DNA from: Escherichia coli O157 typing phage 13
Reading direction: 5' to 3' (one strand)
Length of the DNA: 64,000 bases
Sequence record: KP869111
Shown piece by piece: positions 3,353 to 53,903 of the stretch. Both the position numbers and the translations under genes were made by a program. The notes under the pieces were generated by a model that was given only the letters and a program-made list of their open reading frames with translations, searched no databases and was not told the DNA's origin. Position 1 is the first letter of the stretch. Every line of letters begins with the position of its first letter.

Positions 3353-3386
3353 GTCTATAGTATCACATACCAAATACGTTGTAAAC
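3353..3386 (-). promoter_or_regulatory. early-type promoter (GTTTAC -35 box, TACTAT-like -10)
   Basis: GTTTAC on minus strand, 17-nt spacer, A/T-rich -10; same architecture recurs at more than 15 sites. Confidence 0.55.
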
Positions 3387-25937: not shown

Positions 25938-25970
25938 GTCTATAATAACATAACCTGTACCAAAGTAAAC
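25938..25970 (-). promoter_or_regulatory. early-type promoter (GTTTAC box) with inverted repeat around the -10
   Basis: GTTTAC on minus strand; GGTACAGGT...ACCTGTACC palindrome flanks the TATAAT-like element. Confidence 0.5.
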
Positions 25971-29937: not shown

Positions 29938-29970
29938 GTTATAGTATCACAACTCCACCATGTTGTAAAC
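29938..29970 (-). promoter_or_regulatory. early-type promoter (GTTTAC box)
   Basis: GTTTAC, spacer, ATACTATA -10, followed by a GAGGAA Shine-Dalgarno. Confidence 0.5.
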
Positions 29971-32040: not shown

Positions 32041-32097
32041 TTAGATTTCCTCAATTATCCATAGGAGCATTATACTCTGCTCCCGAGAGTTTGTAAA

Positions 32098-32322
32098 CTA
32101 TTTTACTAAAGATTCAATATACTCATGAAGAGCTTTAGTCGCTACTGCCCACTTATTCTGATATTCATTTTTCAGATTAGCACGAGACTGAACTAACAAG
32201 CGGTCATTAGTCGGAGGCAAAGATTCTAATCGTTGAATCTGGCGCCCATAAATCATAGCCGCCATTTCAGATTCATAGATAAGCCCTTTAATGTATTCAT
32301 GCTGTTCTTTAGTCATTGGCAT
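32098..32322 (-). CDS. hypothetical protein, 74 aa
   Basis: ORF in the pseT-alc interval. Confidence 0.45.
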   Translation of the reverse strand: MPMTKEQHEYIKGLIYESEMAAMIYGRQIQRLESLPPTNDRLLVQSRANLKNEYQNKWAVATKALHEYIESLVK

Positions 32323-33469: not shown

Positions 33470-33504
33470 AAGCCATAGTAACACCATCCTTGGTGTTTGT
33501 AAAC
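33470..33504 (-). promoter_or_regulatory. early-type promoter (GTTTAC box)
   Basis: GTTTAC, spacer, TACTAT -10 upstream of alc. Confidence 0.5.
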
Positions 33505-38951: not shown

Positions 38952-40635
<1,684 letters not shown>

Positions 40636-40644
40636 TGTATTTCC

Positions 40645-40887
40645 TCAAACAGACTTTTTCACAATTTTCCAATCAGCTTTAAATTGGTCGACATCCGAGT
40701 GATAAATCCAGAATCCGGATGATATACCATCTTCGTAGAGTGGACATCCATCACATTCTTCATTCCATCCCATTTCACGTAAAGCTTCTTCAGCTTGTTC
40801 AAGGAGTTCAGCATCTTTACCAACGACGTTGAAGTACCATTTACCTCTAACTTCTGAATCTTTGATGCTCTGGCGTTGCAATCTCAT
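40645..40887 (-). CDS. hypothetical protein (frd.2-like position)
   Basis: 80 aa ORF downstream of early promoter cassette. Confidence 0.45.
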   Translation of the reverse strand: MRLQRQSIKDSEVRGKWYFNVVGKDAELLEQAEEALREMGWNEECDGCPLYEDGISSGFWIYHSDVDQFKADWKIVKKSV

Positions 40888-40912
40888 TTTATTCTCCTCT
40901 TCACTTTTATTT

Positions 40913-40951
40913 GATAGGACTACTATAACATAGCCCTATCTTGTTATAAAC
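40913..40951 (-). promoter_or_regulatory. early promoter cassette with near-palindromic 28-mer (PeSL-like)
   Basis: GTTTAT -35, TATAGT -10; 28-mer at 40913-40940 is the exact reverse complement of 45597-45624. Confidence 0.55.
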
Positions 40952-41343
40952 TACTTTTTAAAAGTTTTTTGCAAAAGTTTGATGATTTCGTCGACGTTGG
41001 TTTCATCTACGATACAATGGATTTTTGTTACACCTAAAGTTATACCTTCGTTAGTAGGTTGAGGCTTTACTAAATCTACCTCAGTAAAGTATTTGAACTC
41101 GTCAGGATAAATCTCAAAATAAGTTTCAATTTCACCACCGGCAGAACATACAGTACCATCTTCCATAGTTACACTTACTACGTTTGACATATCGCTATCA
41201 TAATCAGGTTCCATTCCGTTTACAACAAAACTAGGCCCGTGGAGTTCAATCAATTTTAACATCTTAGCGTTATTGTGTGGTGCTTCTTGAACAAAGTCAT
41301 CTTTAAATAAAGGGTTAATGATATAAGATTTTCCGATTTCCAT
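40951..41343 (-). CDS. hypothetical protein (frd.3-like position)
   Basis: 130 aa ORF. Confidence 0.5.
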   Translation of the reverse strand: MEIGKSYIINPLFKDDFVQEAPHNNAKMLKLIELHGPSFVVNGMEPDYDSDMSNVVSVTMEDGTVCSAGGEIETYFEIYPDEFKYFTEVDLVKPQPTNEGITLGVTKIHCIVDETNVDEIIKLLQKTFKK

Positions 41344-41367
41344 TTTGATTTCCTCATGTTGTTGATA

Positions 41368-41401
41368 AGTCTATACTAACACATCCAGGGAAGAAGTAAA
41401 C
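41368..41401 (-). promoter_or_regulatory. early-type promoter (GTTTAC box)
   Basis: GTTTAC, 17-nt spacer, TAGTAT -10, GAGGAA Shine-Dalgarno. Confidence 0.5.
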
Positions 41402-41433
41402 AACTTTTTTTGGCAATTTACAGATACTCAAAA

Positions 41434-41451
41434 GGGAGACCGAAGTCTCCC
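41434..41451 (-). terminator. hairpin GGGAGACCGAAGTCTCCC after gene 32
   Basis: identical 18-mer to 26450 and 62212. Confidence 0.65.
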
Positions 41452-41457
41452 AATTTA

Positions 41458-42357
41458 TTATAGACCAGCTAACAGGTCATCGAGGTCGCCATCGTCAGAA
41501 GACGAGGAACTCATGAAGTCATCTTCAGTTTTTGCAGAACTAAAGGCTTCCATGTCTTTATCAAAATCGTCAAGGTCAGAAGCAACTTTATCTGCAACAG
41601 AAGCTGCGGCAGCTGCTGCACCGCCCAGAGCGGCAGTACCAAGAACTTGATTAAATTTAGTATTCAATTCTTCAAACGATTTGAACTTATCTTTAGAAGT
41701 CATTTCAGAAAGGTCAACCATTTGTTCGAACAATTCTTTCTGGAAAGATTCATCATCAATGTTTGGAATCGCAGATTGATTCAGGAATTTAGATTCGTCG
41801 TAGTTACTGAAACCAGAAACCTGTTTAACTTTCAGCACAAAGTTAGCACCTTCCCATGGGCAAGTTACATCAACAGGAGTTTCACCCATTTCAGTATCAA
41901 CTGCAATCATTGCATTGATTTTGTCCCAAATCTTTTTACCAAAACGGTATTTGAATACTTTACCTTCATTATCTGGAGCTTGAGGGTCTTTAACAACCAG
42001 AATATTAGCCCAATAAGAAGTTTTACGTTTCAGTTGAGAATATTCAGTTTTGTTGGTATTGTACAGGTCATTTTTACTAATGTACTGACATACAGGACAA
42101 GAGTCATAATCGCCGTGTGTAGATGAACAGGTTTCAATATACCATTTGCCATTTTTCTTGAACCCGTGGTTAACAAGAATTGCAAATGGAAGTGCGTCAT
42201 CTGTTTTTGCCGGCAGGAAACGAATTACCGCTTGACCATTACCGGATGCGTCGAGTTTCAGCTTCCATTCACCTTTATCTTCTGAAGAGAAACCTTTGTT
42301 ACCATTCAGTTTAGCCATCTGAGCAGCGAGGTCAGCAGTAGATTTACGTTTAAACAT
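41458..42357 (-). CDS. 32: single-stranded DNA-binding protein gp32
   Basis: 299 aa; matches T4 gp32 including acidic C-terminal tail. Confidence 0.95.
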
Positions 42358-42426
42358 TATATTTACCTTTATTTAGATTATTTAATTTATTTACAGTTGG
42401 TTGCTACGACACTTATACCTCGTAGC
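42358..42426 (-). promoter_or_regulatory. gene 32 translational operator (A/U-rich leader plus upstream hairpin)
   Basis: repeated UAAAU units before the AUG and a GCUACGA/UCGUAGC stem upstream, as expected for gp32 autoregulation. Confidence 0.4.
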
Positions 42427-42436
42427 TGGTATGTTT

Positions 42437-42444
42437 TATTTATA
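42437..42444 (-). promoter_or_regulatory. late promoter (TATAAATA on minus strand) upstream of gene 32
   Basis: exact reverse-complement TATAAATA. Confidence 0.4.
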
Positions 42445-42473
42445 CGGTAATTCTAACATAGATAAAATAAAGC

Positions 42474-43127
42474 TTAATACTTACATGATTTGATTGTTTC
42501 TATGAACAATTTCTTAGCAGCATTTCCATCGATTTGAAGTATTTTTCGATATGCCTTTAATTTAGTAGAATAATTTTGCCAGACTAAGTTATCGGTGAGT
42601 TCGTCGTGCTTATCTATAATATTCAAAAATGAGTCCAACAATAAGAAAGTCTCAAATGAAATTATATTGCTTTGTAGCAATTTGAATATGTAGCTCGTCT
42701 GAACGTTGTTATTATAATCAAATATCTCTTGAAGCGCACTAACTTCAACTTTCTTACTGAAATAGTAGATGTTACGTACGTCTTCAGCAAACGTCTCTTT
42801 AGCTTGTTTGAGACGTCCAATATATTCCCTATAGAAAACTAATGCATCAGCGTCTGATATCTCACCAATCCATGCGTCTTGGTTAGCAACTAAGTTGCTT
42901 ATGAATATCAAGGTGAGTTCCTTCAATTTATATTTCTCTGCTAGTTTTTCAAAGAAATATTTATCTCGGCGTTTTTGATACGCATTATCCGAAACACGCA
43001 TGCACCAGTTATATTTGATTACGTCATACCGACCATTAAAATGTTGTTTGCACATCAAGTATAGTTTGTATACCGATTTTCCGTTAATATAACGTTCTCC
43101 ATCAGGAGGCATGCGTATTTTAATCAT
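42474..43127 (-). CDS. 59: helicase loader gp59
   Basis: 217 aa as in T4 gp59. Confidence 0.9.
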   Translation of the reverse strand: MIKIRMPPDGERYINGKSVYKLYLMCKQHFNGRYDVIKYNWCMRVSDNAYQKRRDKYFFEKLAEKYKLKELTLIFISNLVANQDAWIGEISDADALVFYREYIGRLKQAKETFAEDVRNIYYFSKKVEVSALQEIFDYNNNVQTSYIFKLLQSNIISFETFLLLDSFLNIIDKHDELTDNLVWQNYSTKLKAYRKILQIDGNAAKKLFIETIKSCKY

Positions 43128-43462
43128 AATAAGAAATCTAACGTATTAGTTTTTTCACCACGAGCAACTGATGGGCGAAGCATGTTTTCGTCAATTGCTT
43201 CGCTTGTAATTTTTTCAACAATTCCTGTAGGAATAAATTTAGCAAATTGTGTTTCTGGAATAGAATTTTCTTCCAAGAAAGCAGTTGTTGCTTCTAAATA
43301 AGACATACCAAATTGTTCAACCATGGATTCGATAATGAATCCGTTTTCTTGTCGGTCAAGCAATTTAGCGATATCATCTTTATCGTGTTTTACTGCTAAT
43401 TCTTGTTCAGATAAACCGGCCTCATCAACCGGTTTAATATCACTTAGTGAAAACTGTGTCAT
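43124..43462 (-). CDS. 33: late transcription co-activator gp33
   Basis: 112 aa as in T4 gp33; synteny 59-33-dsbA. Confidence 0.85.
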   Translation of the reverse strand: MTQFSLSDIKPVDEAGLSEQELAVKHDKDDIAKLLDRQENGFIIESMVEQFGMSYLEATTAFLEENSIPETQFAKFIPTGIVEKITSEAIDENMLRPSVARGEKTNTLDFLL

Positions 43463-43709
43463 AAAGCTCGACTACCTCTTCGTTTTCAGCTTCAAATTGG
43501 TCACGAGCGTCTTTATGATAAAGAGCTAACAAACGATTAAACATTTTTCCATCGACGCCAAGTTCTTCTTTAGCACGAGTACGAATGTCTTTAATCAGTT
43601 CATTATAACCAGAAATTTTAAGTTTGTTATCGGAAGCTTCCTTGACTAGTTTAGCCAGTTCTTCACCATGCACATCTTGATTAAATTCAACTGCTTCTTT
43701 CTTAGCCAT
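43440..43709 (-). CDS. dsbA: double-stranded DNA-binding protein DsbA
   Basis: start set at internal MAKKE giving 89 aa as in T4. Confidence 0.75.
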   Translation of the reverse strand: MAKKEAVEFNQDVHGEELAKLVKEASDNKLKISGYNELIKDIRTRAKEELGVDGKMFNRLLALYHKDARDQFEAENEEVVELYDTVFTK

Positions 43710-43716
43710 GTTTACC

Positions 43717-44634
43717 TCAGAATTCATTAATTACACTTGTTAATTTAGAAAGACCAGATTTTACAAAATATGAATAAATCTTGCCTTTAGGTTGTTGTTT
43801 ATATGAGTTATAATACTCTATAATGGTTGAAGCAATATTATCAGGGATATAATCAAAATCAATGAGAACCAAATTTTCTTGATACCGTTTATATTCTTCT
43901 GCACTTAATAATACTTCAGCTTGAGAACGGTCATTGGCAATTGCTTCAATAATCGATGTTTTCATGCTCGGAGTTCGTTCACCATCAACTCTGGTAAACC
44001 AGAAGTCGCCACGAACTCGAACAGATGCAACACCATCCTTACGGTCACCTTTAAGAATTTTAGTCATGCAATCAATTTCAGCAGAACCGTTCTTAATTTT
44101 AACCCATTTTTTCTGTGGTGGCGACCACTGTTTAACATTAGGATATTTGTGTAATTGTGTAAAGTCACCATCTGATGCAACAATACATACCTTATGACCG
44201 GCTAATGACAAATATTTAGTTAATACACCGATATGGTCATCCGCTTCATACTTGTCAATATCCATTACAACGTATGGCATGTATTTCTTAATCTCATCAA
44301 CAACTTGATGGAGTGCAGTAAAATATCCTTCCCAATCCCACTTTGAAGCTTCACGATCGGTTTTACGATTTTTCTTGTAATAGTAAGCAAAATCACGTCG
44401 CCAATAACCTGAAGTAGCATTATCCATACACAATACAAATTTTGTATAGCCTTGCTTACGGAACATCACCACGTTTTTACGAATTGAATTCAAGATTACA
44501 TGTCGAACCATTGGAACAGTAATTTTATCGCCATCTTCAAAGTTGTTTAATGCGGCTGCCAATGCAATGTTACTAAAGTCAGCAAGTGCAATACCTTCTT
44601 TGTAATCTTCATCCAACATCATTTCTAAATCCAT
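43717..44634 (-). CDS. rnh: RNase H (5-prime to 3-prime exonuclease / flap endonuclease)
   Basis: 305 aa as in T4 RNase H. Confidence 0.9.
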   Translation of the reverse strand: MDLEMMLDEDYKEGIALADFSNIALAAALNNFEDGDKITVPMVRHVILNSIRKNVVMFRKQGYTKFVLCMDNATSGYWRRDFAYYYKKNRKTDREASKWDWEGYFTALHQVVDEIKKYMPYVVMDIDKYEADDHIGVLTKYLSLAGHKVCIVASDGDFTQLHKYPNVKQWSPPQKKWVKIKNGSAEIDCMTKILKGDRKDGVASVRVRGDFWFTRVDGERTPSMKTSIIEAIANDRSQAEVLLSAEEYKRYQENLVLIDFDYIPDNIASTIIEYYNSYKQQPKGKIYSYFVKSGLSKLTSVINEF

Positions 44635-44660
44635 ATGAACCTCTTGTTCAGTTAGTCAAC

Positions 44661-44696
44661 TTGTCTATAGTAACACACTCATTTGAAAGCGTAAAC
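44661..44696 (-). promoter_or_regulatory. early-type promoter (GTTTAC box) for rnh
   Basis: GTTTAC, 17-nt spacer, TTACTAT. Confidence 0.5.
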
Positions 44697-44699
44697 TGG

Positions 44700-44707
44700 T
44701 ATAAATA
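44700..44707 (+). promoter_or_regulatory. late promoter (TATAAATA) for gene 34
   Basis: exact TATAAATA 30 nt upstream of gene 34 ATG, divergent from the rnh promoter. Confidence 0.55.
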
Positions 44708-44737
44708 AGTATTATTGAAACAATAAAGGAAAAACGA

Positions 44738-45383
44738 ATGGCCGACATCAAACGTAAGTTCAGAGCCGAAGACGGTCTGGACGCCGGTGGCGACAAGATT
44801 GTTAACGTAGCATTAGCCGACCGTACAGTAGGTACTGATGGCGTAAACGTTGACTTCCTGGTACAAGAAAACACCGTTCAAGTATATGATTCTACGCGTG
44901 GATATAACAAAGGATTTGTTGTTCTTTATGACAACCGTTTATATCAAGCAATAAATGATATCGTGTCTCCTTCCGGGGCATTTAACCTTTTACAATGGCG
45001 TGCAGTTCGTACCGATGCACAATGGATAACTGTCGCTTCTGGGACTTATCAACTTTCTTCAGGTGAATCTATTTCGGTTAACACTGGTGCCGGCAATGAT
45101 ATGGTTTTCACGTTGCCAAATACGCCGGTTGATGGTGATACTGTTGTTTTGGCTGATATTGGTGGAAGAACCGGGACAGTTAAAGTACAGATTAACGCGT
45201 CTGTGCAGAGTATTTTAAACTTTAGAGGTGAACAAGTTCGTACAGTTTTAATGACGCGCCCACGTTCACAACTATTGTTTGTGTTTAGTAATCGTTTGTG
45301 GCAGATGTATATTACCGATTATGGTAAAGAATCAATCACTGTTACACCTGCGACACCATATCAAGCACAAGCAAATGATTTTA
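44738..45383 (+). CDS. 34: long tail fibre proximal subunit gp34, N-terminal fragment truncated by an N-run
   Basis: first about 215 codons match the T4 gp34 N-terminus; sequence after the N-run is unrelated. Confidence 0.85.
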
Positions 45384-45483
45384 NNNNNNNNNNNNNNNNN
45401 NNNNNNNNNNNNNNNNNNNNNNNNNNNNNNNNNNNNNNNNNNNNNNNNNNNNNNNNNNNNNNNNNNNNNNNNNNNNNNNNNNN

Positions 45484-45582
45484 GCTACTATTGTTATCTC
45501 TCCGGCTGAAGAGACCGCACTGTTTAAAGCTAAGCATATTTCTGTAGCTCAGCTTAAAATTATTGCAAAAACTCTTCTGTAA
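45484..45582 (+). CDS. C-terminal fragment of an unidentified protein (5-prime part in N-run)
   Basis: open frame from the N-run to TAA, ...AKHISVAQLKIIAKTLL; not gp34. Confidence 0.25.
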   Translation, partial: ATIVISPAEETALFKAKHISVAQLKIIAKTLL

Positions 45583-45585
45583 GTA

Positions 45586-45616
45586 GTTTACATCTTGATA
45601 GGGCTATGTTATAGTA
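45586..45616 (+). promoter_or_regulatory. early promoter cassette with near-palindromic 28-mer (PeSL-like)
   Basis: GTTTACA, 18-nt spacer, TATAGT; inverted repeat GATAGGGCTAT / ATAGTAGTCCTATC. Confidence 0.55.
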
Positions 45617-45643
45617 GTCCTATCAAAACAAATAGAGTCCACA

Positions 45644-45883
45644 ATGATTTATTACGAAAGTATCGGAACCAAAGTGGTTGGTAAAACCATTACTCGTGAA
45701 AAGTTTGCAAAGATATTCGATATGCGTTATAAAAAATCTGAACACAAAGGCATCCGATTCGAAGATGCGCACTGTACAATTTGCCCTTATAATGAAGACA
45801 TAAACGGTACAATCGTTCCATTGGTAGAGGCTTCACATGATGACCTCTGGGATGAATATAATATCGCATGTCGTGAAATTTAA
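45644..45883 (+). CDS. hypothetical early protein, 79 aa
   Basis: ORF downstream of PeSL-like promoter. Confidence 0.5.
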   Translation: MIYYESIGTKVVGKTITREKFAKIFDMRYKKSEHKGIRFEDAHCTICPYNEDINGTIVPLVEASHDDLWDEYNIACREI

Positions 45884-45911
45884 GTTAATGAATTAATCCG
45901 AGGAAAATATT

Positions 45912-46903
45912 ATGATGTTAGTTATTGGTTCTCGTGCACTTCACTATCACGGTCTTATTGATTCTAGCGCTATTAAAAATAGTGATTGGGACTTTATTGC
46001 GGACCAAGGTTCTTGGAATGCATTCAAAAATCAAATGATGGGTGTATATGTTCACCAAGATAACCCTGATGTCCAAGTTTTCAAATGCTTCCATAATGGA
46101 CGCGAAACTCATTTTGAAGCATATATTGTTCCGGCAATCACTAATGTCCGTGAATTAGTCGGTGAACTCACTCCTGAAGATTTCACGTCTTCTTATGACC
46201 TTTTAAAATACGCCAAGAAAAATTTGACTAAAGACCGTTTGAACGGGTTTTACTGGGCAACTCCTGAGATATGTCTTGCAATTAAGATGTCTCATCGTTT
46301 CAAGAAAAATAATCCATTCTTTTTAAAGACTATGAACCATATTCAGTATCTTCGTGGTAAAGGTGTTACACTTAACGATGAACTTACTGAAATTATGCTG
46401 AAACGNNNNNNNNNNNNNNNNNNNNNNNNNNNNNNNNNNNNNNNNNNNNNNNNNNNNNNNNNNNNNNNNNNNNNNNNNNNNNNNNNNNNNNNNNNNNNNN
46501 NNNNNNNNNNNNNNNNNNNNNNNNNNNNNNNNNNNNNNNNNNNNNNNNNNNNNNNNNNNNNNNNNNNNNNNNNNNNNNNNNNNNNNNNNNNNNNNNNNNN
46601 NNNNNNNNNNNNNNNNNGAAGTTTGAATCACTTCCGGAAATGGTCAAATTGGCCGGTGTATATGAAGAAACATGTGTACTAGCGTTAGAACGTTCTCAGA
46701 TTCCTAATGGCTTTGAAATCCATCCTCGTGATAGTTTTATGATGGCATTAGAAAAGGTCTGTACTTCAATCACATCAGGCTGGTTCCGTGAGTATGCCTG
46801 GGAGAACTATGGCAAAGTAGTAAGTATGTATCAAAGCTTAGGACACGACGATTACGTCAAGCGTTTCAAACAAAATTTTCATATGGTAAAACCTTTCAAA
46901 TAA
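45912..46903 (+). CDS. hypothetical protein with possible nucleotidyltransferase-fold N-terminus (interrupted by N-run)
   Basis: N-terminal IGSRALHYHG...SDWDF resembles the GS...DxD pol-beta-type NTase motif; frame resumes after the 212-nt N-run. Confidence 0.45.
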
Positions 46904-46915
46904 TTTCACCAAACT

Positions 46916-46948
46916 GTTTACAAGGTCTGTAGTTGTTGATACTATAGA
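46916..46948 (+). promoter_or_regulatory. early-type promoter (GTTTAC box)
   Basis: GTTTACA, spacer, TACTATAG. Confidence 0.5.
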
Positions 46949-46961
46949 CCTATCAAAACAA

Positions 46962-47183
46962 ATGAGTGAATGGAGATACAAAATGACTACTTTGAATAAA
47001 CGTTTCGGTAAAGCTAAACCTGGCTGTGCAGCAGAACGTCGTTACATTTTCGCTCAGTTAGAAGATGTAGAGTATCAGATTAATCAAGTTCACATTACTG
47101 GCATCGAGCCTATGTGTGGCCTTGAAGCTCTTCGTGAAGTTCGTGACGGGTATCGTCGTGATATCGAAGAAATGTCAAAATAA
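46962..47183 (+). CDS. hypothetical early protein, 73 aa
   Basis: ORF downstream of early promoter. Confidence 0.45.
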   Translation: MSEWRYKMTTLNKRFGKAKPGCAAERRYIFAQLEDVEYQINQVHITGIEPMCGLEALREVRDGYRRDIEEMSK

Positions 47184-47184
47184 G

Positions 47185-47214
47185 TGTACAAACTGATAGG
47201 ACTATGTTATAGTA
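47185..47214 (+). promoter_or_regulatory. early promoter cassette (PeSL-like variant)
   Basis: GTGTAC -35 variant, TATAGT -10, inverted repeat GATAGGACTAT / ATAGTAGTCCTAT. Confidence 0.5.
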
Positions 47215-47241
47215 GTCCTATTAAAACATGAGGAGAATATT

Positions 47242-47341
47242 ATGAAATTAGGCGAAACCAACCGAATTGGTCTTTTAACAATATTTGTATCACTTTTTTA
47301 CGCAGCTCTTTCTGTTGCAGTATTACAAAAGGCTTACAGTA
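47242..47341 (+). CDS. N-terminal fragment of a putative membrane protein (runs into N-run)
   Basis: hydrophobic N-terminus MKLGETNRIGLLTIFVSLFYAALSV. Confidence 0.3.
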
Positions 47342-47441
47342 NNNNNNNNNNNNNNNNNNNNNNNNNNNNNNNNNNNNNNNNNNNNNNNNNNNNNNNNNNN
47401 NNNNNNNNNNNNNNNNNNNNNNNNNNNNNNNNNNNNNNNNN

Positions 47442-48971
47442 GAACGTGGTAATATCATGGCTGTTTATGGCGGTATTGTATATCCAATCGGAAGTGTTAT
47501 TAAAGAACAAACATGGATGATGACGCGATGCACTACAGCTTATATTAAATTCCCTATGGGTGAACTAGATGTAGCCCCGTCTCGTGAAGCATTGTCATTT
47601 GATAAACGTACAGTAGCAAATATCCATAAACGCGTTGCAGAAATCGATGCTAAATTGTTTGCTGAAGATTCTAAGAAATGGATTGATTGTAAATACCCAC
47701 GTCATGTGTTCCGTGAAATTGATTCTCTTGGCTATACCGCTCGTAAATACATGGAAAAGGCCGGGTCTAATATTGAATCACTGAAATACTCTAAAGAACA
47801 ACTAACTTATTCTGAGTTGTACAAACGTTTTAAAATGGGGCCTGAGTGGTGTAATCTTGGCGTCGTATACGATATCGTTGAATCCCCTCGTCTTCGTCGT
47901 ATTCGTGAAAGTGGTAGCTCATCATCAACCATTTCAATTAACAGCCTGATTGGCATTAACATTAAAAACGTTGAAATTGTTATTGACGACGTTAAGGGAC
48001 GCGTTCCATTAATGCGAGCTCTTAATTCAATTGAAATGTCTAAAGACGAGGTTAAATTAACTGGTAAAGTTCCACGTGGTTTTGGTAAAAGCGTACTATT
48101 CGTTGACCCTACAGACGAAGATGCAATGAAACTTCTGGAACGCCTTAAAGTTATCTTTGATGGCGACAACATTAACATGTACAAGACTTCAGAGCTTTTA
48201 CAAATCGTTAAGCCATGGATTGAAGTCAGGAAACGAACTAATGAGCCTCGTCCTAAATCCCCAAGTGCTCATCGGTTCTTTAAGAATGAAAATGATGTTT
48301 GGGTATCAGAAGATCTCTTTATTCCGGCAAGTGAAGCAGATGAAATCCAAGGTTATGCTATAGTTCGTAATCGTTCTAATGCTGAATGTCTTGACGCAGA
48401 TAAAGGTTGGTTGAATTATGATTCTAATTTCTTGACTCGTATTGCCGATTTGTCAGGTATTAAAGAGTTCACTGTAGTTCGCCCACAGATTGCTAAGAAA
48501 GTTCGTAAACTTGGTGAAGTAGAATGCTTGTTCGAAAAATCAATTAATGACTATATTACGCTAATTGATAAAGTGGATTATGATGAGTATGTATCACCAA
48601 GTCGTAGAGCACAGCCTTATTTGAATCATATTACTCGTAATGAAGAGCTTAACTTCCTTAGTAAGTATTTTAGCTCTAAGAACAAAGAAATCAGTAAAGA
48701 TTTTGCAAAACTTTCAACAGTAAATAATCGTTGGGGATGGAATCGATTCGCAGGTGCTGATAACAGAGACCTGAACAGGAAGTTAGAATTGTGTGCTAAA
48801 ATTTTCGATAAGCTTAAAGATAATGCTTACGATTATGATGATAAAATGGTTATTGAATTTGAAACCAATTATCATATTGTGTCAGAATACATGGGACGAC
48901 GTGGTACTCTTTCCAAAGAACAGGTCACTCAAATCGTTAAATTCATGAAGGCTGTGGAAGCAGCCAAATAA
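47442..48971 (+). CDS. rIIA: rIIA membrane-associated protein, C-terminal about 70 percent (5-prime part missing in N-run)
   Basis: frame open from the N-run; ...YGGIVYPIGSV...FPMGELDVAPSREALS matches the T4 rIIA mid-region; followed by rIIB. Confidence 0.85.
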   Translation, partial: ERGNIMAVYGGIVYPIGSVIKEQTWMMTRCTTAYIKFPMGELDVAPSREALSFDKRTVANIHKRVAEIDAKLFAEDSKKWIDCKYPRHVFREIDSLGYTARKYMEKAGSNIESLKYSKEQLTYSELYKRFKMGPEWCNLGVVYDIVESPRLRRIRESGSSSSTISINSLIGINIKNVEIVIDDVKGRVPLMRALNSIEMSKDEVKLTGKVPRGFGKSVLFVDPTDEDAMKLLERLKVIFDGDNINMYKTSELLQIVKPWIEVRKRTNEPRPKSPSAHRFFKNENDVWVSEDLFIPASEADEIQGYAIVRNRSNAECLDADKGWLNYDSNFLTRIADLSGIKEFTVVRPQIAKKVRKLGEVECLFEKSINDYITLIDKVDYDEYVSPSRRAQPYLNHITRNEELNFLSKYFSSKNKEISKDFAKLSTVNNRWGWNRFAGADNRDLNRKLELCAKIFDKLKDNAYDYDDKMVIEFETNYHIVSEYMGRRGTLSKEQVTQIVKFMKAVEAAK

Positions 48972-48980
48972 GGAAACATT

Positions 48981-49928
48981 ATGTACAATATCAAATGCTT
49001 GTCCCAAGAAGAACAGTTAGAAGCTTACGGCCTGGTTGAATCAGGCAAATGGACTCGTAAAGAAATTGCCGATTACTTCGACATTTCAACAGATACTCTT
49101 CGTAAGATTGTTAAGAATTTTAAAGCAGAAGGCGTTGTCCCTGAAGCAAACGATGCCTCTTATGTAATCGAAGAAGTTCCAGAAAATGATGAACCTATTA
49201 TCGGCGGACATCGTCCTGAAATCGTATGGAACGCGTCATCTAAATTTATTTCAATTATTGAAGGACGCGTAGCATACAATGCGACCCCATCAAGTCATGC
49301 AAATTTTGAAGAAATTAAAGCTAATCTGGTCGCAGGAAACCTTAGTAAAGCTGTCGAACTTATTAACATCAAGAAAGCTATTACTAAGTTTGTTGATGGT
49401 AATGTTACTATTGAAGGTGGTAGTTTATTTTATCAAGGTATAGAGATTCGTTCAGGGCTGGTTAACCGTATTATTGATTCCATGGAAAAAGGTGAAGACT
49501 TTAAATTCTATCTGCCATTCCTTGAAAACCTGTTAGAAAACCCAAGCGAAAAAGCTGTACAACGTTTATTCGACTTCTTGGTTGCAAACGATATTGAAAT
49601 CACTGAAGATGGGTATTTCTATGCATGGAAAGTAGTTCGTAAGGACTATTTAGACTGCTATAGTGGTACATTTGATAACTCCCCAGGTAAAGTTGTTTCA
49701 ATGCCTCGTACTCGAGTTAACGACGATGATACTCAAACCTGTTCTCGCGGTCTCCACGTTTGTGCTAAATCTTATATTCGCCACTTTGGTTCAAGCTCAG
49801 ATAAAGTTGTGAAGGTTAAAGTTCATCCACGTGATGTTGTATCCATCCCAGTTGACTATGGTGATGCTAAGATGCGTACTTGTCGTTATGAAGTAATTTC
49901 AGACGTTACTGAATTATTTGCAGAATAA
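48981..49928 (+). CDS. rIIB: rIIB protein
   Basis: 315 aa; MYNIKCL... matches T4 rIIB (312 aa). Confidence 0.9.
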   Translation: MYNIKCLSQEEQLEAYGLVESGKWTRKEIADYFDISTDTLRKIVKNFKAEGVVPEANDASYVIEEVPENDEPIIGGHRPEIVWNASSKFISIIEGRVAYNATPSSHANFEEIKANLVAGNLSKAVELINIKKAITKFVDGNVTIEGGSLFYQGIEIRSGLVNRIIDSMEKGEDFKFYLPFLENLLENPSEKAVQRLFDFLVANDIEITEDGYFYAWKVVRKDYLDCYSGTFDNSPGKVVSMPRTRVNDDDTQTCSRGLHVCAKSYIRHFGSSSDKVVKVKVHPRDVVSIPVDYGDAKMRTCRYEVISDVTELFAE

Positions 49929-49933
49929 TAATT

Positions 49934-49949
49934 GGGGACTTCGGTCCCC
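49934..49949 (+). terminator. hairpin GGGGACTTCGGTCCCC plus T-run after rIIB
   Basis: UUCG tetraloop hairpin followed by TTTTTTTT. Confidence 0.7.
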
Positions 49950-49971
49950 TTTTTTTTCTTTAGGGGTAATT

Positions 49972-50259
49972 ATGATTCATCCATTTGACGTATCAGAATC
50001 CAAAATTGCTAATCTTCGTGGTCATCATAAGTGTAAATCAGTTTATTGTGCTAAATTGGTAAAACATCCTGGCGATGCACACTATGGCTGGTTAGAATGT
50101 GACGAAGTTGTTATTGAAATCCCACCGGTAGATGCAGAATATCTTGAAGAAGGTGACCGCATTTATTTTGGCGAACTACACATTAGAGGTATCTATGGTA
50201 AAGACGAACTTGGGACTGTTGAGGCTGAAGAGTCTTCCGACATTTATCCTGTCGAATGA
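49972..50259 (+). CDS. hypothetical protein, 96 aa
   Basis: ORF after rIIB; start set at first ATG after the terminator. Confidence 0.45.
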   Translation: MIHPFDVSESKIANLRGHHKCKSVYCAKLVKHPGDAHYGWLECDEVVIEIPPVDAEYLEEGDRIYFGELHIRGIYGKDELGTVEAEESSDIYPVE

Positions 50260-50275
50260 GTTTTTGACTAGCGAA

Positions 50276-50752
50276 ATGAAGGTTAAGATCGCTGATACTG
50301 CTCGGTACTCGTTGAAACAAGATCCAGGTCAAATAAAAGAAGACGTTGTTCGACGTTGTAAGGTTGCAGTCTTTGCAGAGTATGTAGTAGCAAATTGGCT
50401 AGACGGATATGTTAATAAAGGTAATGAAGACGTAGAAGACCCGTACACGTATGCATGGGACGTTTTAGCTCATCCTAAGTACTGTGGTCTACGCGTAGAA
50501 GTAAAGACCCATCAGATGGATTCGAAATGGATTTCGGTTACCACAGGATACGGTGGTGATTATCCAGGTGGCAACGGAATCAACATAGGGCCCTTCTTGA
50601 ACCATCGAGTCGCAGATTGCATTATTATATTAGATGTCAAAGAAACCTCACCTGACGTCTTCTCTTATTCTATAAAGTTCGTGGGAGACCATGAAGACCT
50701 AAAGAAAATCGTCCGCAAGAGCAACTACAACGGGTGGTATCTTCATCTTTAA
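50276..50752 (+). CDS. hypothetical protein, 158 aa (position where T4 has denB; identity not confirmed)
   Basis: start set at internal ATG just after the previous stop; synteny only. Confidence 0.4.
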   Translation: MKVKIADTARYSLKQDPGQIKEDVVRRCKVAVFAEYVVANWLDGYVNKGNEDVEDPYTYAWDVLAHPKYCGLRVEVKTHQMDSKWISVTTGYGGDYPGGNGINIGPFLNHRVADCIIILDVKETSPDVFSYSIKFVGDHEDLKKIVRKSNYNGWYLHL

Positions 50753-50764
50753 TTTCATAAAAGT

Positions 50765-50795
50765 GTTTACAACTAAGTAGGACTATGATATAGTA
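50765..50795 (+). promoter_or_regulatory. early promoter cassette (PeSL-like)
   Basis: GTTTAC, spacer, TATAGT with flanking inverted repeat GTAGGACTAT / ATAGTAGTCCTAT. Confidence 0.5.
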
Positions 50796-50820
50796 GTCCT
50801 ATCTAAAAGAGGATAACATC

Positions 50821-51084
50821 ATGAAATTTAAATTTTTCTACGCAAAACATAAAGTAACAGGCGAATTTGTTTCAATGTACAACACTGCAGATGACGAAGG
50901 GATGATTTATACCCATTTGGGTCTATCTCATTGGGACTCAGACGTGCCTTATATGTCATCTGAAGCCGAAATAACTCGTTTAGTTAATGGACATATGAAC
51001 GACCATTTTAGTGTTATCCTTTCTAAAGACCTTAAAGAGGTTATCAACAAAGGATATATGGAACTCGCGGAAGTTGAGATATGA
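50821..51084 (+). CDS. hypothetical early protein, 87 aa
   Basis: ORF downstream of promoter cassette. Confidence 0.45.
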   Translation: MKFKFFYAKHKVTGEFVSMYNTADDEGMIYTHLGLSHWDSDVPYMSSEAEITRLVNGHMNDHFSVILSKDLKEVINKGYMELAEVEI

Positions 51085-51276
51085 GCTCTAAAATGTGGAT
51101 CGGAATATGGTTGCTTAGTATCCCAATGATTTGTATAATATTTTCAATTGTGTTGAGGTACTTATGAAAAATGCACTTCTTATTGTACTAAGATCAATTT
51201 GTGATACGGGTTTTTACATTGCATGTTCGTTCACTGGAACATGGTTGGCTTTAACATATTTTAATGTAATTTAATT

Positions 51277-51307
51277 GTTTACAACAAGGTAGGATTATGG
51301 TATAGTA
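51277..51307 (+). promoter_or_regulatory. early promoter cassette (PeSL-like)
   Basis: GTTTAC, spacer, TATAGT with inverted repeat GTAGGATTAT / ATAGTAGTCCTAC. Confidence 0.5.
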
Positions 51308-51334
51308 GTCCTACTGAAACATGAGGAACACAAA

Positions 51335-51535
51335 ATGGCTAAGCTTTTTAAAGATGTTGAAATTGGTGAAAAATTTGTTCTGAATAATGGTCAGCAGCTT
51401 ATTCGTGTAGCTTCTATCGCCGGACAAACTCATAACTGTATCGCCCCAACGTGTTGGACTCGATTTTTTATTGAAGATGACACTGAATGTTTAACTGTTG
51501 AAGAGCTTTTTGAACGTTCTGATATGACCGAATAA
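51335..51535 (+). CDS. hypothetical early protein, 66 aa
   Basis: ORF downstream of promoter cassette. Confidence 0.4.
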   Translation: MAKLFKDVEIGEKFVLNNGQQLIRVASIAGQTHNCIAPTCWTRFFIEDDTECLTVEELFERSDMTE

Positions 51536-51537
51536 AA

Positions 51538-51569
51538 TTGTACAAACTCTTGAGAGCAGAGTATAATGC
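51538..51569 (+). promoter_or_regulatory. early-type promoter (TTGTAC -35, TATAAT -10) with flanking inverted repeat
   Basis: TGAGAGCA...TGCTCTCA palindrome around the TATAAT. Confidence 0.45.
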
Positions 51570-51611
51570 TCTCATGGATTACAAAAACATTAATCAATTG
51601 AGGAAATTAGC

Positions 51612-52058
51612 ATGTCCAAATATTTAACTCGTAAAGACCTTCTGGCAGTTGGCGGTGAAGTTGTTGCAGTAGTTCGTAATGGCGAATACGGTTCTGAAGT
51701 TTCTAAAGAGTTTCGTTCTCGTGAAGGTTTTTACTTCTTTGTTAAAGGTTCATCTGATTGGCGACAAGTAGCAGCACGATTCTTTGTAGGACGTCAACGT
51801 TCTAAACAAGGGTTGGATGCAATTCTTTCTCACATTCGTCAAGGCCGTTCGCAACTAGCCCGTACCATGGGCACTAATAATATTGAATATGATGTAATCT
51901 TTGTTGCAGCTAAGAACATGAAACCACTGACCACCGGTTATGGTAAAGGTCAATTGGCTCTGGCATTCACTCGCAACCATACATCAGAATATCAAACACT
52001 CACTGAAATGAACCGTCTTCTGGCTGATAATTTCAAATTCATTCTGCAGAGTTACTAA
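51612..52058 (+). CDS. ndd: nucleoid disruption protein Ndd
   Basis: 148 aa; ...[30 protein letters not shown]...[13 protein letters not shown] matches T4 Ndd. Confidence 0.8.
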
Positions 52059-52111
52059 TTTATACAGGCCCTATTAAGTTAGGCCTTTAATTTATTTTTG
52101 AGGTAATTAAA

Positions 52112-52258
52112 ATGGTAGCATGGATTATTGCATTGCTGTGTTGGTCGTTTTTATTCGTTAACACTTTAGTTACAGGCGAAACAACAGTATTTCAACAGGC
52201 CGTATCACAAGGTACCTTAGCGGTCTTAGCTCTTATTAACGTGTTAAAAGGCGAGTAA
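52112..52258 (+). CDS. small hydrophobic membrane peptide, 48 aa
   Basis: ORF below size cutoff with a single transmembrane-like segment; T4 has small ORFs ac, stp and 52.1 here. Confidence 0.3.
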   Translation: MVAWIIALLCWSFLFVNTLVTGETTVFQQAVSQGTLAVLALINVLKGE

Positions 52259-52398
52259 TGATTAAGAAAATCTTAGCAGGAGCCTTCGGGCTCTTGTTGT
52301 TGCTTACGGTTCTGTACTACGGTGTGATGTTTGGACTAATCCAAGTAGTGCTTTTCATTTCAGATGTTATAATGGATATTCGTTCATTAATATGGTGA
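52258..52398 (+). CDS. small hydrophobic membrane peptide, 46 aa
   Basis: ORF overlapping the previous stop (TAATG); hydrophobic core. Confidence 0.3.
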   Translation: MIKKILAGAFGLLLLLTVLYYGVMFGLIQVVLFISDVIMDIRSLIW

Positions 52399-52402
52399 AA
52401 AT

Positions 52403-53811
52403 ATGCAATTGAATTCTCGTAATCTAAAAAGTATTATTGATAACGAAGCCTTAGCATATGCGATGTACACCGTTGAAAACCGTGCAATCCCAAACATGAT
52501 TGATGGATTTAAGCCGGTTCAACGTTTTGTGGTCCATCGTGCGTTAGATTTGGCTCGTGGTAATAAAGAAAAATTTCATAAACTTGCGTCAATTGCAGGC
52601 GGTGTTGCAGATTTAGGTTATCACCATGGTGAATCTTCTGCACAAGATGCAGGTGCATTGATGGCTAACACATGGAACAACAACTATCCACTGTTAGATG
52701 GCCAAGGCAACTTTGGTTCTAGAACAGTCCANNNNNNNNNNNNNNNNNNNNNNNNNNNNNNNNNNNNNNNNNNNNNNNNNNNNNNNNNNNNNNNNNNNNN
52801 NNNNNNNNNNNNNNNAAAGCTGCAGCATCTCGTTATATTTTTGCTCGTGTAAGTAAAAATTTCTATAACGTATATAAAGATACTGAATATGCTCCAGCTC
52901 ATGAAGATAAAGAACACGTTCCACCAAAATTCTATCTTCCTATTATTCCGACAGTTCTTTTGAATGGTGTATCTGGTATTGCAACCGGTTACGCAACAAA
53001 TATTCTGCCTCATAGTTTTAAATCGGTAAAAAAGGCTGTATTACAAGCTCTTCAAGGTAAAAATGTCACTAAGCCAAAAGTTGAATTCCCGGAATTCCAT
53101 GGTGAAGTACATGAAGTTGATGGGCGTTATGAGATTCACGGAACATATAAGTTCACATCTCGCACTCAAATGCAGATAACTGAAATCCCATATAAATTCG
53201 ACCGTGAAACGTATGTGAGTAAGGTTCTTGACCCGTTGGAAGACAAAGGTCTAATCTCATGGGAAGATGATTGTGGTGAACACGGCTTTGGGTTTAAGGT
53301 GAAGTTCCGTAAAGAGTACTCGCTTCCTGATGATGAAGAGCTACGTCATGAAAAAATCATGAAAGATTTTAGTCTCATCGAACGTCGTTCACAAAACATC
53401 ACAGTGATTAATGAAAAGGGTAAATTAGCAGTCTACGATAACGTAGTGGACTTAATCAAAGATTTTGTTGAAGTCCGTAAGACTTACGTTCAGAAACGTA
53501 TTGACAACAAAATCCTTGAATCTGAAAAAGCATTTAAACTGGCTTTTGCTAAGGCACACTTCATCAAAAAAGTTATCAACGGTGAAATCGTGATTCAGGG
53601 CAAGACTCGTAAAGCTTTGACTGAAGAGCTAGCACAAATCGAAATGTATAAAGAACATGTCGATAAACTGGTAGGTCTTAACATCTTCCATATCACTTCC
53701 GATGAAGCACGTAAACTAGCAGAAGAAGCTAAAGCTAAGAAAGAAGAAAATGAGTATTGGAAGTCTACTGATGTTGTGACAGAGTACACTAAAGACTTGG
53801 AGGCACTTTGA
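52403..53811 (+). CDS. 52: DNA topoisomerase II medium subunit gp52 (interrupted by N-run)
   Basis: IPNMIDGFKPVQRFV GyrA-type motif; both flanks of the N-run match T4 gp52; frame differs across the N-run. Confidence 0.9.
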
Positions 53812-53887
53812 GTGCTATAGCCTTAGGATTTCTCGGTGCAATAGCTGTACTAGTGATTTGGCTGTATTGGTTGGACAAACATGATTA

Positions 53888-53903
53888 GGGAGCTTCGGCT
53901 CCC
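53888..53903 (+). terminator. hairpin GGGAGCTTCGGCTCCC plus T-run
   Basis: UUCG tetraloop hairpin downstream of gene 52. Confidence 0.6.

Follow-up and report, generated by a model that had tools for sequence, protein, structure and literature searches.

Near-palindromic repeats recur between positions 40,913 and 51,307 of the DNA of Escherichia coli O157 typing phage 13 (KP869111), and they raise the question of what such an element does: whether it starts transcripts, ends them, or serves the exchange of the genes beside it. The window considered here is the whole 64,000-nt stretch. It is scaffolded draft sequence of a Mosigvirus (RB69-like, T4-type) and, across the aligned stretches, matches tp3 (E. 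coli O157 typing phage 3) with 100% identity. Judged by their sequence, the repeats are strong T4-type early promoters of an RB69-like phage with a built-in hairpin.

The Repeat Family and Its Scaffold Context

Exact matches to the 28-mer GATAGGGCTATGTTATAGTAGTCCTATC lie at 45597-45624 (+) and, in reverse complement, at 40913-40940, and 100 dinucleotide shuffles contain no match to it. A further copy with 2 mismatches is found at 47195-47222, and two more distant family members, at about 50776 and 51288, differ at 4 and 6 of the 28 positions. These are the close variants that a sequence-only reading of this DNA had placed near 47196, 50775 and 51288. The promoter parts recognised in that reading (a GTTTAC-type −35, a TATAGT −10 and an inverted repeat spanning it) are present in all five copies. 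The −35 box is GTTTAC, except for GTTTAT at 40946-40951 and GTGTAC at 47184-47189; an 18-nt spacer with TGn at its end follows, and then TATAGT in every case. The −10 lies within or beside the loop of the inverted repeat, and the five copies fold as RNA with dG of −13.2 to −18 kcal/mol (z −3.1 to −7.0). Small ORFs of unknown function lie downstream of cassettes, which agrees with the proposal that they adjoin novel ORFs. The cassettes of this region are listed below (dG in kcal/mol).

40888..40971, − strand: cassette with a frd.1-like ORF (40645-40887) downstream; −35 GTTTAT 40946-40951, −10 TATAGT 40922-40927, arms in 40913-40940 (exact 28-mer); dG −16, z −6.0; equals tp3 4826-4853, RB69 orthologue Pe:145300
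45566..45643, + strand: cassette with a 79-aa ORF (45644-45883) downstream; −35 45586-45591, −10 45610-45615, hairpin 45595-45626, exact 28-mer 45597-45624; dG −18, z −7.0
46896..46961, + strand: cassette whose stem differs, AGGTCTGTAG / CTATAGACCT (including one G·T pair), with ORF 46962-47183 downstream; −35 46916-46921, −10 TACTAT 46940-46945, hairpin 46923-46951; dG −15.5, z −4.3
47164..47241, + strand: cassette whose downstream ORF, from 47242, is cut by a gap at 47342; −35 GTGTAC 47184-47189, −10 47208-47213, hairpin 47194-47223, 2-mismatch 28-mer 47195-47222; dG −15.5, z −5.6
50745..50820, + strand: cassette in the interval between denB and an 87-aa ORF (50821-51084); −35 50765-50770, −10 50789-50794, hairpin 50777-50802; dG −13.2, z −3.1; RB69 orthologue Pe:165795, the best score among RB69 early promoters
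51257..51334, + strand: cassette with a ndd.1-like ORF (51335-51535) downstream; −35 51277-51282, −10 51301-51306, hairpin 51288-51315 (one U·G pair); dG −13.6, z −3.7; RB69 Pe:165283
51518..51611, + strand: cassette with ndd (51612-52058) downstream; −35 TTGTAC 51538-51543, −10 TATAAT 51562-51567, unrelated stem GAGAGCA / TGCTCTC; dG −13.9, z −3.8; RB69 Pe:165022

Part of this arrangement belongs to the assembly. The window contains eight runs of N, two of which are exactly 100 N long:

45384-45483, no strand: scaffold gap between a gene-34 fragment and a small contig
47342-47441, no strand: scaffold gap separating the small contig from a 5′-truncated rIIA

Because these two exact 100-N gaps border it, the segment 45484-47341 is a separate contig of 1.86 kb, flanked by a tail-fibre gene 34 fragment on one side and the truncated rIIA on the other. 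The contigs on either side align to tp3 in mutually opposite orientations, and tp3 itself carries three exact copies of the 28-mer (4826, 75140, 82077), all on one strand. The opposite orientations of the 28-mer, and the cassettes that seemed to bracket a gene island at 45.5-47.3 kb, therefore result from the way in which the scaffold was joined. This calls for caution in genome scans, since cassette repeats adjoin contig breaks and scaffold joins can mimic gene islands.

Promoter Identity

A position matrix trained on the window's promoters was scanned against the complete tp3 genome and a shuffled genome, and it found 42 sites in the former and none in the latter. Every one of the 42 lies on the early-gene strand, and nearly all stand directly 5′ of a ribosome-binding site and ATG. 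They are intergenic sigma-70-type promoters with an AT-rich upstream region, a stop codon on the 5′ side, and a ribosome-binding site and start codon on the 3′ side. A generic sigma-70 scan ranks the cassettes at the top, with 10/12 matches plus TG. The features of T4-type early promoters (GTTTAC, TGn-extended TAnnnT, an A-rich upstream element and early-gene orientation) are all present. We infer promoter activity, start sites and RNA 3′ ends from such features.

For RB69, 58 early promoters have been predicted (Nolan et al. 2006, PMC1524935), and the supplement to that work already lists orthologues of the cassettes (Pe:165795, Pe:165283, Pe:69254, Pe:67959 and Pe:145300). The consensus is the same, with A-rich upstream sequence, GTTTAC, a −10 extended by TGn, and positions −3 to −1 rich in C, and the RB69 orthologues of the cassettes first noted carry the highest scores in the list. 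The words "hairpin" and "palindrom" do not occur in Nolan et al. 2006, and no inverted repeat is described there; the hairpin layer is what the present analysis adds.

Other early promoters in the window include some with unrelated stems, and others in which a hairpin is weak or absent:

25942..25970, − strand: early promoter, 11-bp unrelated stem TTGGTACAGGT / ACCTGTACCAA around the −10; dG −17.9, z −4.8; T4 orthologue is the early promoter at 129918, hairpin kept
29941..29970, − strand: early promoter, stem TGGTGGAGTT / AACTCTACCA (G·T pair); dG −16.9, z −5.3; T4 orthologue is the cd.3 promoter (133331), hairpin kept via wobble-compatible changes
32069..32098, − strand: early promoter, stem GGAGCA / TGCTCC around TATAAT; z −2.95
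33475..33504, − strand: early promoter, hairpin entirely within the spacer (ACACCAaggaTGGTGT)
34658-34687, − strand: early promoter resembling the preceding one (spacer hairpin)
3357..3386, 6204-6233, 18984-19013, 26385-26413, 41373-41401 and 44667-44696, − strand: early promoters of the same consensus, hairpin weak or absent
53929-53957 and 56427-56456, + strand: early promoters of the same consensus, hairpin weak or absent

Selection on the Hairpin

The pairing of the hairpin is under selection. A stable stem-loop lies within or beside many of the promoters: 20 of the 42 in tp3 have a −10-spanning hairpin, 6 have one inside the spacer and 5 have none, while in the remaining 11 the spacer pairs with the ribosome-binding-site region (strongly in 4). 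Genome-wide in tp3, 23/42 promoters have z below −2. Mean z is about −2.6 to −2.9, with −2.6 for the 32 unique promoters (p ~1e-6). The two arms of a promoter pair with each other at −8.7 kcal/mol, compared with −5.6 ± 0.6 for arms swapped among promoter families, and none of 7316 permutations reaches the observed value. At least five unrelated stem sequences maintain this pairing. Among 91 unique promoters from IMG/VR the average is −8.5 kcal/mol, against −3.7 with shuffled and −5.2 with swapped spacers, and the −10-spanning layout is also found in T4 and Acinetobacter phage Acj61. The sense strand outfolds the antisense strand in 16/21 tp3 and 40/42 IMG/VR promoters, and the interruptions in long helices are 12 G·T and no A·C. 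One RB69 cassette does have an A·C mismatch within its stem. A search of 40000-57000 with Rfam covariance models (E up to 1) gave no relevant match. The pairing register varies among promoters, and about half of them lack a −10-spanning hairpin, so the hairpin appears dispensable for promoter function.

These observations are probably best explained by sigma-70 early promoters of Mosigvirus whose hairpin acts on read-through RNA and whose cores provide homologies for recombination. Each cassette occupies an entire intergenic gap of about 60 nt, in the order stop codon, A-rich upstream element, GTTTAC, 18-nt TGn-ended spacer and TATAGT/TACTAT, followed by a conserved start-site stretch (about GTCCTATCAA), the ribosome-binding site and ATG. 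In roughly half of the promoters, the spacer is complementary to the stretch just 3′ of the −10, so RNA arriving from upstream would fold into a hairpin of 10-13 bp that holds the −10 in its loop. RNA started locally would begin at or beyond the 3′ arm and form no hairpin. The hairpin may act on read-through transcripts as an attenuator or as a 3′-end or processing barrier. Whatever its role in RNA, the identical cores of 27-36 nt are short homologies with which the phage recombination system would delete, insert or swap the small genes in between.

It is possible, although speculative, that the hairpins mark where a transcript originated, with one subclass serving as a lock on the ribosome-binding site and the −10-spanning class as punctuation, in a design conserved from coliphages to Acinetobacter phages. 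A hairpin could report origin because its 5′ arm lies inside the promoter spacer and only read-through RNA folds. In four tp3 early promoters, the start of the spacer pairs with the promoter's own ribosome-binding site over 11-13 bp:

tp3 86655 (before denV), 89608 (before regB), 131011 and 144056 (both before unknown ORFs): early promoters pairing with the ribosome-binding site

The T4 genes e, soc, 49 and I-TevI have a hairpin that hides the ribosome-binding site in read-through RNA and not in RNA started inside the hairpin. Here too the promoter is inside the hairpin and only upstream transcripts would fold. The known T4 hairpins use late promoters, however, and the 28-mer-type cassettes (class I) leave the ribosome-binding site uncovered. 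If the marker idea is right, genes of the subclass would be translated from their own early promoter only, giving strictly early expression after early-promoter shut-off, and the −10-spanning class would divide long early transcripts into segments, each with a stability of its own.

Alternatively, these might be plain early promoters, in which a functionless palindrome is the by-product of the consensus and of recent duplication or gene conversion. Nine tp3 promoters share a TAGGACTAT...ATAGTCCTA core, three of them with 35-36 identical bases, as copying would produce; the right arm also overlaps the conserved start-site stretch, and such a hairpin is absent from half of the promoters. We nevertheless regard this as unlikely, since unrelated stems pair equally well and own arms still pair better than swapped ones when each family contributes a single representative. 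Moreover, right arms that deviate from the consensus are matched by corresponding changes in the left arm (window 25942 and 29941; T4 129918 and 133331), and the 12:0 ratio of G·T to A·C is unexpected without selection on one strand.

The element could instead act in DNA, as the operator of a dimeric protein from phage or host (e.g., a factor for early-promoter shut-off) or as a cruciform that helps to melt the −10. A dyad over the −10 and start site is in the classic position for a repressor, near-identical half-sites (GATAGGAC ... GTCCTATC) occur in Mosigvirus and Acj61, and AsiA does not explain the shut-off of T4 early promoters (Hinton 2010, PMC2988021). An operator would have the same half-site at a fixed spacing with no strand preference, whereas stem sequences and registers differ among promoters and the sense strand is favoured, which fits a structure and not one recognition sequence. 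The G·T wobbles worsen the antisense fold by ~3 kcal/mol; a cruciform or symmetric site would favour neither strand. The likeness across genera would follow from a conserved start-site element in the right arm that the left arm simply complements. Action in DNA is accordingly improbable.

Cassettes and Terminators

Cassettes sit directly after the upstream stop codon, where a terminator would be expected, and in phi1 the stem-loop of PeSL211/210, a promoter-early stem-loop (PeSL) cassette, cut lacZ expression as much as rrnB T1 (Arbiol 2010, PMC2839356). It is nonetheless very unlikely that the hairpins are true Rho-independent terminators and the cassette a full terminator plus promoter unit, as in one phi1 PeSL. 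An intrinsic terminator has a GC-rich hairpin and a U-run on the transcribed strand, while the cassette stems are AT-rich (those of phi1 are G/C-rich) and are followed by A-rich sequence with no U-tract. A terminator scan called no cassette on the sense strand, the stem at 50778-50801 being called on the antisense strand only, and none of the 31 TransTerm terminators of RB69 coincides with a cassette. The phage also has a separate family of GC-rich terminators, GGGAGACTTCGGTCTCCC followed by T's, e.g., at 41434-41451 (−) and 49934-49949 (+). Given the better sense-strand fold and the absence of a U-tract, the preferred reading remains that of an RNA hairpin on read-through transcripts and not a classical terminator; the missing U-tract also makes a 3′-end or processing barrier separating neighbouring messages likelier than an attenuator.

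Recombination at Cassettes

Hybrid cassettes are found at joints between close relatives. The cassette at 45566..45643 is a recombinant joint, with its left flank from the tp3 ipI-side cassette and its right flank from the gp258-side cassette, and the small contig lacks 6.9 kb relative to tp3 at this point. A hybrid at a typing phage 6 joint, where 8.2 kb is missing, has as its right-hand partner the cassette that lies at 47164..47241 in the window. RB69 has a hybrid at 134c|133c, and single-ORF indels relative to RB69 have a cassette at both flanks. Crossovers within cassettes account for the two deletions and the single-ORF indels.

Cassettes are present at ~18% of gene junctions. Against this background, 8/15 tp3/RB69 events touch a cassette (p = 0.09), 3/15 have one on both sides (p = 0.012) and 7/15 have none at either end. 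With the two typing-phage deletions, which rest on short-read assemblies, 5/17 are flanked on both sides (p = 2e-4). The typing phages of Cowley 2015 were assembled with Velvet at k = 90-120, at which a 27-35-nt repeat should not collapse, although the window's project may differ. There is a modest excess of junctions at cassettes once the gene-boundary ends of indels are allowed for. The proposed modular exchange is borne out by hybrid cassettes at real joints in the ipI-e region and in the typing phage 3, typing phage 6 and window comparison, with modest enrichment. It does not extend to the surroundings of ndd, where the window is collinear with RB69 and has no indel.

Several indels involve genes that open with the IP capsid-targeting motif MKTY(K/Q)EFI (tp3 gp098 and gp247, RB69 ORF156c and ORF125c); these genes adjoin ipI or denV and have early promoters and AT-rich stems.

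It is extremely unlikely that each cassette is a mobile element in its own right, whether MITE-like or served by a dedicated site-specific recombinase: the cassettes are near-palindromic, multi-copy and located at indel borders, and a specific DNA-binding or recombination protein has been speculated on (Arbiol 2010, PMC2839356), yet all 42 copies point the same way and occupy the promoter position of a gene, neither a transposase nor a target duplication was seen, and crossover points vary within the shared identity (27 nt, 35 nt, or the −35/spacer interval), as in homologous recombination.

Relation to Known Systems

Through short promoter repeats, 7-8-kb blocks with the tRNA genes among them can be lost between otherwise identical stocks, which bears on the stability of phage preparations. 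The exchange of small genes through cassette homology corresponds to the PeSL model (Arbiol et al. 2010, PMC2839356; Comeau et al. 2014, PMC4122927); the first of these papers described PeSLs in phi1/RB49, the second in PST/T4 and nt-1/KVP40. The resemblance to PeSL cassettes proposed in the sequence-only reading holds for layout, small ORFs and hybrid joints, while the terminator half does not pass a sequence test for intrinsic terminators. Shared features are an intergenic AT-rich upstream region, −35 and −10, stem-loop, ribosome-binding site and ATG; a stem-loop over the −10 (one of the two commonest layouts in Arbiol et al. 2010) or in the −35/−10 interval, with G·T pairs; many genomic copies before small genes of unknown function; and hybrid cassettes at indel joints between close relatives.

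There are also differences. The promoter here is T4-type GTTTAC, as opposed to the near-perfect TTGACA of RB49, and stems are of the AT-rich GATAGGACTAT type without a U-tract, in contrast to poly-G/poly-C stems, which makes terminator activity of the cassettes doubtful. The published PST/T4 stems lie just 5′ of the promoter, while those described here, from sequence alone, span the −10. The elements that shuffle the T4 internal-protein (IP) locus (Repoila et al. 1994, cited in Arbiol 2010) are similar, as far as they are described there, in that IP-motif genes occur in indels beside ipI/denV, whereas the present cassettes are genome-wide and extend beyond IP loci.

Mosigvirus is outside the coverage of the PeSL papers, and the PeSL idea is here extended to RB69-like phages, a group with many members in use for typing and therapy. 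Compared with the PeSL descriptions consulted, the statistics for selection of the stem-loop, and on the sense strand, are new. The understanding of T4-type early transcription is unchanged: the cassettes are PeSL-kind elements of a design already described in T4 relatives, real but mostly ordinary.

The 28-mer and its early promoters

The 28-mer is found in two exact copies on opposite strands of the window (45597-45624, +; 40913-40940, -) and in a third copy with two mismatches, and it occurs in none of 100 shuffles of the sequence. The sequence-only reading had listed close variants at 47196, 50775 and 51288. This is accurate for the first, which is the copy with two mismatches, while the family members near 50776 and 51288 are less similar, with 4 and 6 differences. 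The -35 box, TATAGT -10 and inverted repeat described for each copy were confirmed in all five, which share a layout of -35 box, 18-nt spacer, TGn and TATAGT. Each of the five folds as a 10-13-bp hairpin (ΔG -13.2 to -18 kcal/mol; z -3.1 to -7.0), with the -10 in the loop and 3′ arm. The opposite orientation of the exact copies is true of the window sequence but has no biological meaning, since the complete genome of E. coli O157 typing phage 3 (tp3) carries exact copies at 4826, 75140 and 82077, all on the same strand.

A position matrix made from the window promoters finds 42 sites in tp3, all on the early-gene strand, and none in a shuffled genome, a positive outcome for the genome-wide motif search that had been suggested as a check. 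Nearly all 42 sites have a ribosome-binding site and an ATG within about 25-45 nt downstream. The cassettes occupy the entire intergenic gap, with the stop codon of the upstream gene 0-15 nt before the -35 box, and the genes 3′ of them are small and of unknown function. A generic sigma-70 scan is informative in its top-ranked matches only; by count, it was no better than chance (68 sites vs 58.5 ± 6.4). In RB69, 58 early promoters have been predicted (Nolan et al. 2006, PMC1524935), in a paper that does not mention hairpins. The RB69 orthologues of the cassettes are among the highest scorers in that list (Pe:165795, 165283, 165022, 69254, 67959, 76459 and 145300).

Scaffold structure of the window

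Megablast assigns the region to the genus Mosigvirus (RB69-like T4-type phages), where the aligned stretches match E. coli O157 typing phages 3 and 6 at 100% identity, and it found no single record covering the whole region in one piece. The window contains eight N runs.

N runs and contigs in the window
1-45383: first contig, tp3 in reverse complement, with its end in tail-fibre gene 34 (tp3 383)
24751-24868: N run
45384-45483: N run, exactly 100 N
45484-47341: separate small contig
46406-46617: N run
47342-47441: N run, exactly 100 N
47442-64000: right-hand sequence, tp3 149951-166161, forward, beginning inside rIIA
52732-52815, 58420-58538, 59018-59104 and 63256-63322: N runs right of 47442

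The N runs right of 47442 stand for just 1-3 tp3 bases, with both flanks perfectly identical to tp3; this marks the window as a draft scaffold in which gap sizes were misjudged. The N-terminal part of gene 34 (44738-45383, +) closes the first contig and the C-terminal part (63323-64000, -) closes the window; the opposite strands of the two parts show that contig joining did not keep a consistent orientation. The order of gene 34, the island and rIIA might suggest an inversion or a mosaic genome, a reading rejected because of the 100-N runs. Cassettes had been said to bracket the ORFs of a 45.5-47.3 kb island; this falls away, because contig joining accounts for the island and its neighbours and for the relative gene orientation. 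ORFs that span N runs (44738-45547, 45912-46682 and a 504-aa 'rIIA' at 47457-48971) are artefacts. As a statement about sequence the original observation is correct; the context in which it was set is in part an artefact of scaffolding. Separately, tandem 27-30-nt periodic repeats at 58100-58665, in the distal tail-fibre gene region, adjoin two scaffold gaps.

Selection on the hairpin

The inverted repeat exceeds what chance or the promoter consensus produces. The mean folding z of 32 unique promoters is -2.6 (p about 1e-6), and z is below -2 in 23 of the 42 promoters genome-wide. The main stem family, GATAGGRCTAT / ATAGTCCTATC, has nine tp3 copies; other stems are AGGTCTGTAG / CTATAGACCT, TTGGTACAGGT / ACCTGTACCAA, TGGTGGAGTT / AACTCTACCA and GGAGCA / TGCTCC. 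When each sequence family is represented by one promoter, pairing between the two arms of the same promoter gives -8.7 kcal/mol, compared to -5.6 ± 0.6 for arms exchanged between promoters, and the own-arm value was matched by 0 of 7316 permutations. Likewise, 91 unique IMG/VR promoters, retrieved with a pattern that leaves the spacer unspecified, have a mean ΔG of -8.5, compared to -3.7 after shuffling of the spacer and -5.2 when spacers are exchanged. The pairing register is variable: the commonest, i+j = 49, is used by 21 of these 91 promoters and others occur, which rules out one fixed register. About half of promoters have another hairpin arrangement or none. An Rfam search of 40000-57000 gave no relevant match at E up to 1.

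The same hairpin layout is found in T4 at promoters near 146143, 133331 and 129918. Those near 133331 and 129918 are orthologous to the promoters at 29941 and 25942 in the window, and their hairpin persists despite sequence changes. Acinetobacter phage Acj61, from a different subfamily, carries GTTTACTTTTTGATAGGACTATGTTATAATGGTCCTATCAAAAC, and a 53-nt cassette matches 51 Acinetobacter phage records.

Acj61 (L011) early promoters with nearly the same dyad, TGATAGGACTATG..ATAATGGTCCTATCA
20006-20050
35679-35725
38303-38350

The T4 record describes a 14-nt segment at 133300-133313 (14397-14410 of L012, from T4) as 'inverted complement of previously reported sequence'. This segment is exactly the loop TTGTGATATTATAG, which holds the -10, between arms GGTAGAG / CTCTACC of the cd.3 early promoter, and the inversion could be an old sequencing error at the hairpin or a real flip of the loop.

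The folding molecule and the question of termination

In 16 of 21 tp3 and 40 of 42 IMG/VR hairpin-bearing promoters, folding is more stable for the sense strand than for its complement, by about 3 kcal/mol, and helices with at least 8 Watson-Crick pairs contain 12 G·T interruptions and no A·C. Neither this strand bias nor a 12:0 ratio would be expected of a cruciform or of a symmetric protein-binding site. Both features are what selection on sense-direction RNA would leave. The predicted start site is about 7 nt past the -10, so the promoter's own transcript would lack the 5′ arm, and only RNA derived from upstream would be able to fold the hairpin.

This hairpin is probably not a classical terminator. 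The stem is followed by A-rich sequence (CAAAACAA), a terminator scan of the window called no cassette on the sense strand, and none of the 31 RB69 TransTerm terminators coincides with a cassette. A distinct family, a repeated GC-rich hairpin consisting of GGGAGACTTCGGTCTCCC followed by T's, looks like the real intrinsic terminators of the phage.

GGGAGACTTCGGTCTCCC-type hairpins followed by T's in the window
3025-3059
26437-26476
41427-41460
49929-49966
52279-52306
62205-62238

One of these, at 41434-41451, is directly upstream of a separate early promoter. The A-rich 3′ flank, the lack of a TransTerm call and the separate terminator family therefore favour, with moderate confidence, a role for the cassette hairpin on read-through RNA that would be attenuating or, more likely, that of a 3′-end or processing barrier.

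Two further promoter types carry complementarity of other kinds. At four tp3 early promoters, the spacer opens with 11-13 nt (TTCTCC...) that form a perfect complement to the ribosome-binding-site region of the gene that follows, and each of these pairings ranks first among 40 such regions tested; a helix hiding the ribosome-binding site could form there in read-through RNA only. A third type has a short hairpin entirely within the spacer, with loop AGGA (CACCAaggaTGGTG).

Promoters of the other two types (L003 and L004 are tp3 segments)
L003 36655-36715 (tp3 86655): spacer/ribosome-binding site, before denV
L003 39608-39665 (tp3 89608): spacer/ribosome-binding site, before regB
L004 31011-31066 (tp3 131011): spacer/ribosome-binding site
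L004 44056-44111 (tp3 144056): spacer/ribosome-binding site
Window 33475-33504, -: spacer-internal hairpin
Window 34658-34687, -: spacer-internal hairpin
L003 28759-28788: spacer-internal hairpin

Recombination at the cassettes

In the window's small contig, the ipI-side flank of one tp3 cassette is joined to the gp258-side flank of another by a crossover within 35 identical bases. Compared to tp3 this is a 6,937-bp deletion, which would remove both tRNA genes together with about 17 ORFs (gp098-gp102, gp270-gp259). Typing phage 6 has an 8.2-kb deletion relative to tp3 that takes out the two tRNA genes along with about 20 small ORFs. At its joint (L005 5047-5106 = 85047-85106), two other cassettes are combined into a precise hybrid, the crossover falling within 27 identical bases. 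Both joints come from short-read assemblies, and assembly collapse alone may have made that of the window's contig, for which arithmetic from the contig's start point gave no consistent assembler k-mer size. Collapse is unlikely for typing phage 6: Velvet was run with k = 90-120 (Cowley et al. 2015), longer than the 27-nt repeat, and should not merge such repeats, so this joint is probably real.

Early regions of tp3 and Sanger-sequenced RB69 differ by 15 indel or replacement events. Cassettes are in contact with 8 of these, on both sides in three (tp3 gp098, tp3 gp256 and RB69 ORF156c), and at neither end in 7; in RB69, the cassette at 134c|133c is hybrid between the two that lie either side of gp256 in tp3. 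With a baseline of about 18% of gene junctions bearing a cassette, enrichment is weak for any contact (p = 0.09) and stronger for both sides (p = 0.012, or 2e-4 including the two typing-phage deletions). From rIIB to gene t, including ndd, the window is collinear with RB69, which gives no support to the modular exchange proposed around ndd. The idea that cassettes mark recombination junctions thus holds in part: they are a frequent substrate of rearrangement, neither sole nor obligatory.

Some variable small genes start with MKTY(K/Q)EFI, the start that targets internal head proteins to the capsid, and this coding start plus the promoter provides the homology at some indel joints.

Genes starting with MKTY(K/Q)EFI
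L003 25191-25220: tp3 gp098
L003 37134-37165: tp3 gp247
L009 (RB69): ORF156c and ORF125c

Comparison with known PeSLs

Promoter-early stem-loops (PeSLs) were described as intergenic motifs of promoter plus stem-loop located at indel joints, with the stem mostly between the -35 and -10 or over the -10 and with G·T pairs present (Arbiol et al. 2010, PMC2839356). They were then extended to T4/PST and KVP40/nt-1 and suggested for all T4-like phages (Comeau et al. 2014, PMC4122927); RB69-like phages are treated in neither paper. The window cassettes share the structural and comparative features of PeSLs; what sets them apart is that their stems are AT-rich and lack a U-tract. The likeness first drawn from the sequence was right in substance, with terminator function doubtful and the link to rearrangement real but partial. 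The cassettes are best filed as PeSL-type elements, an already known kind, here in an RB69-like phage.
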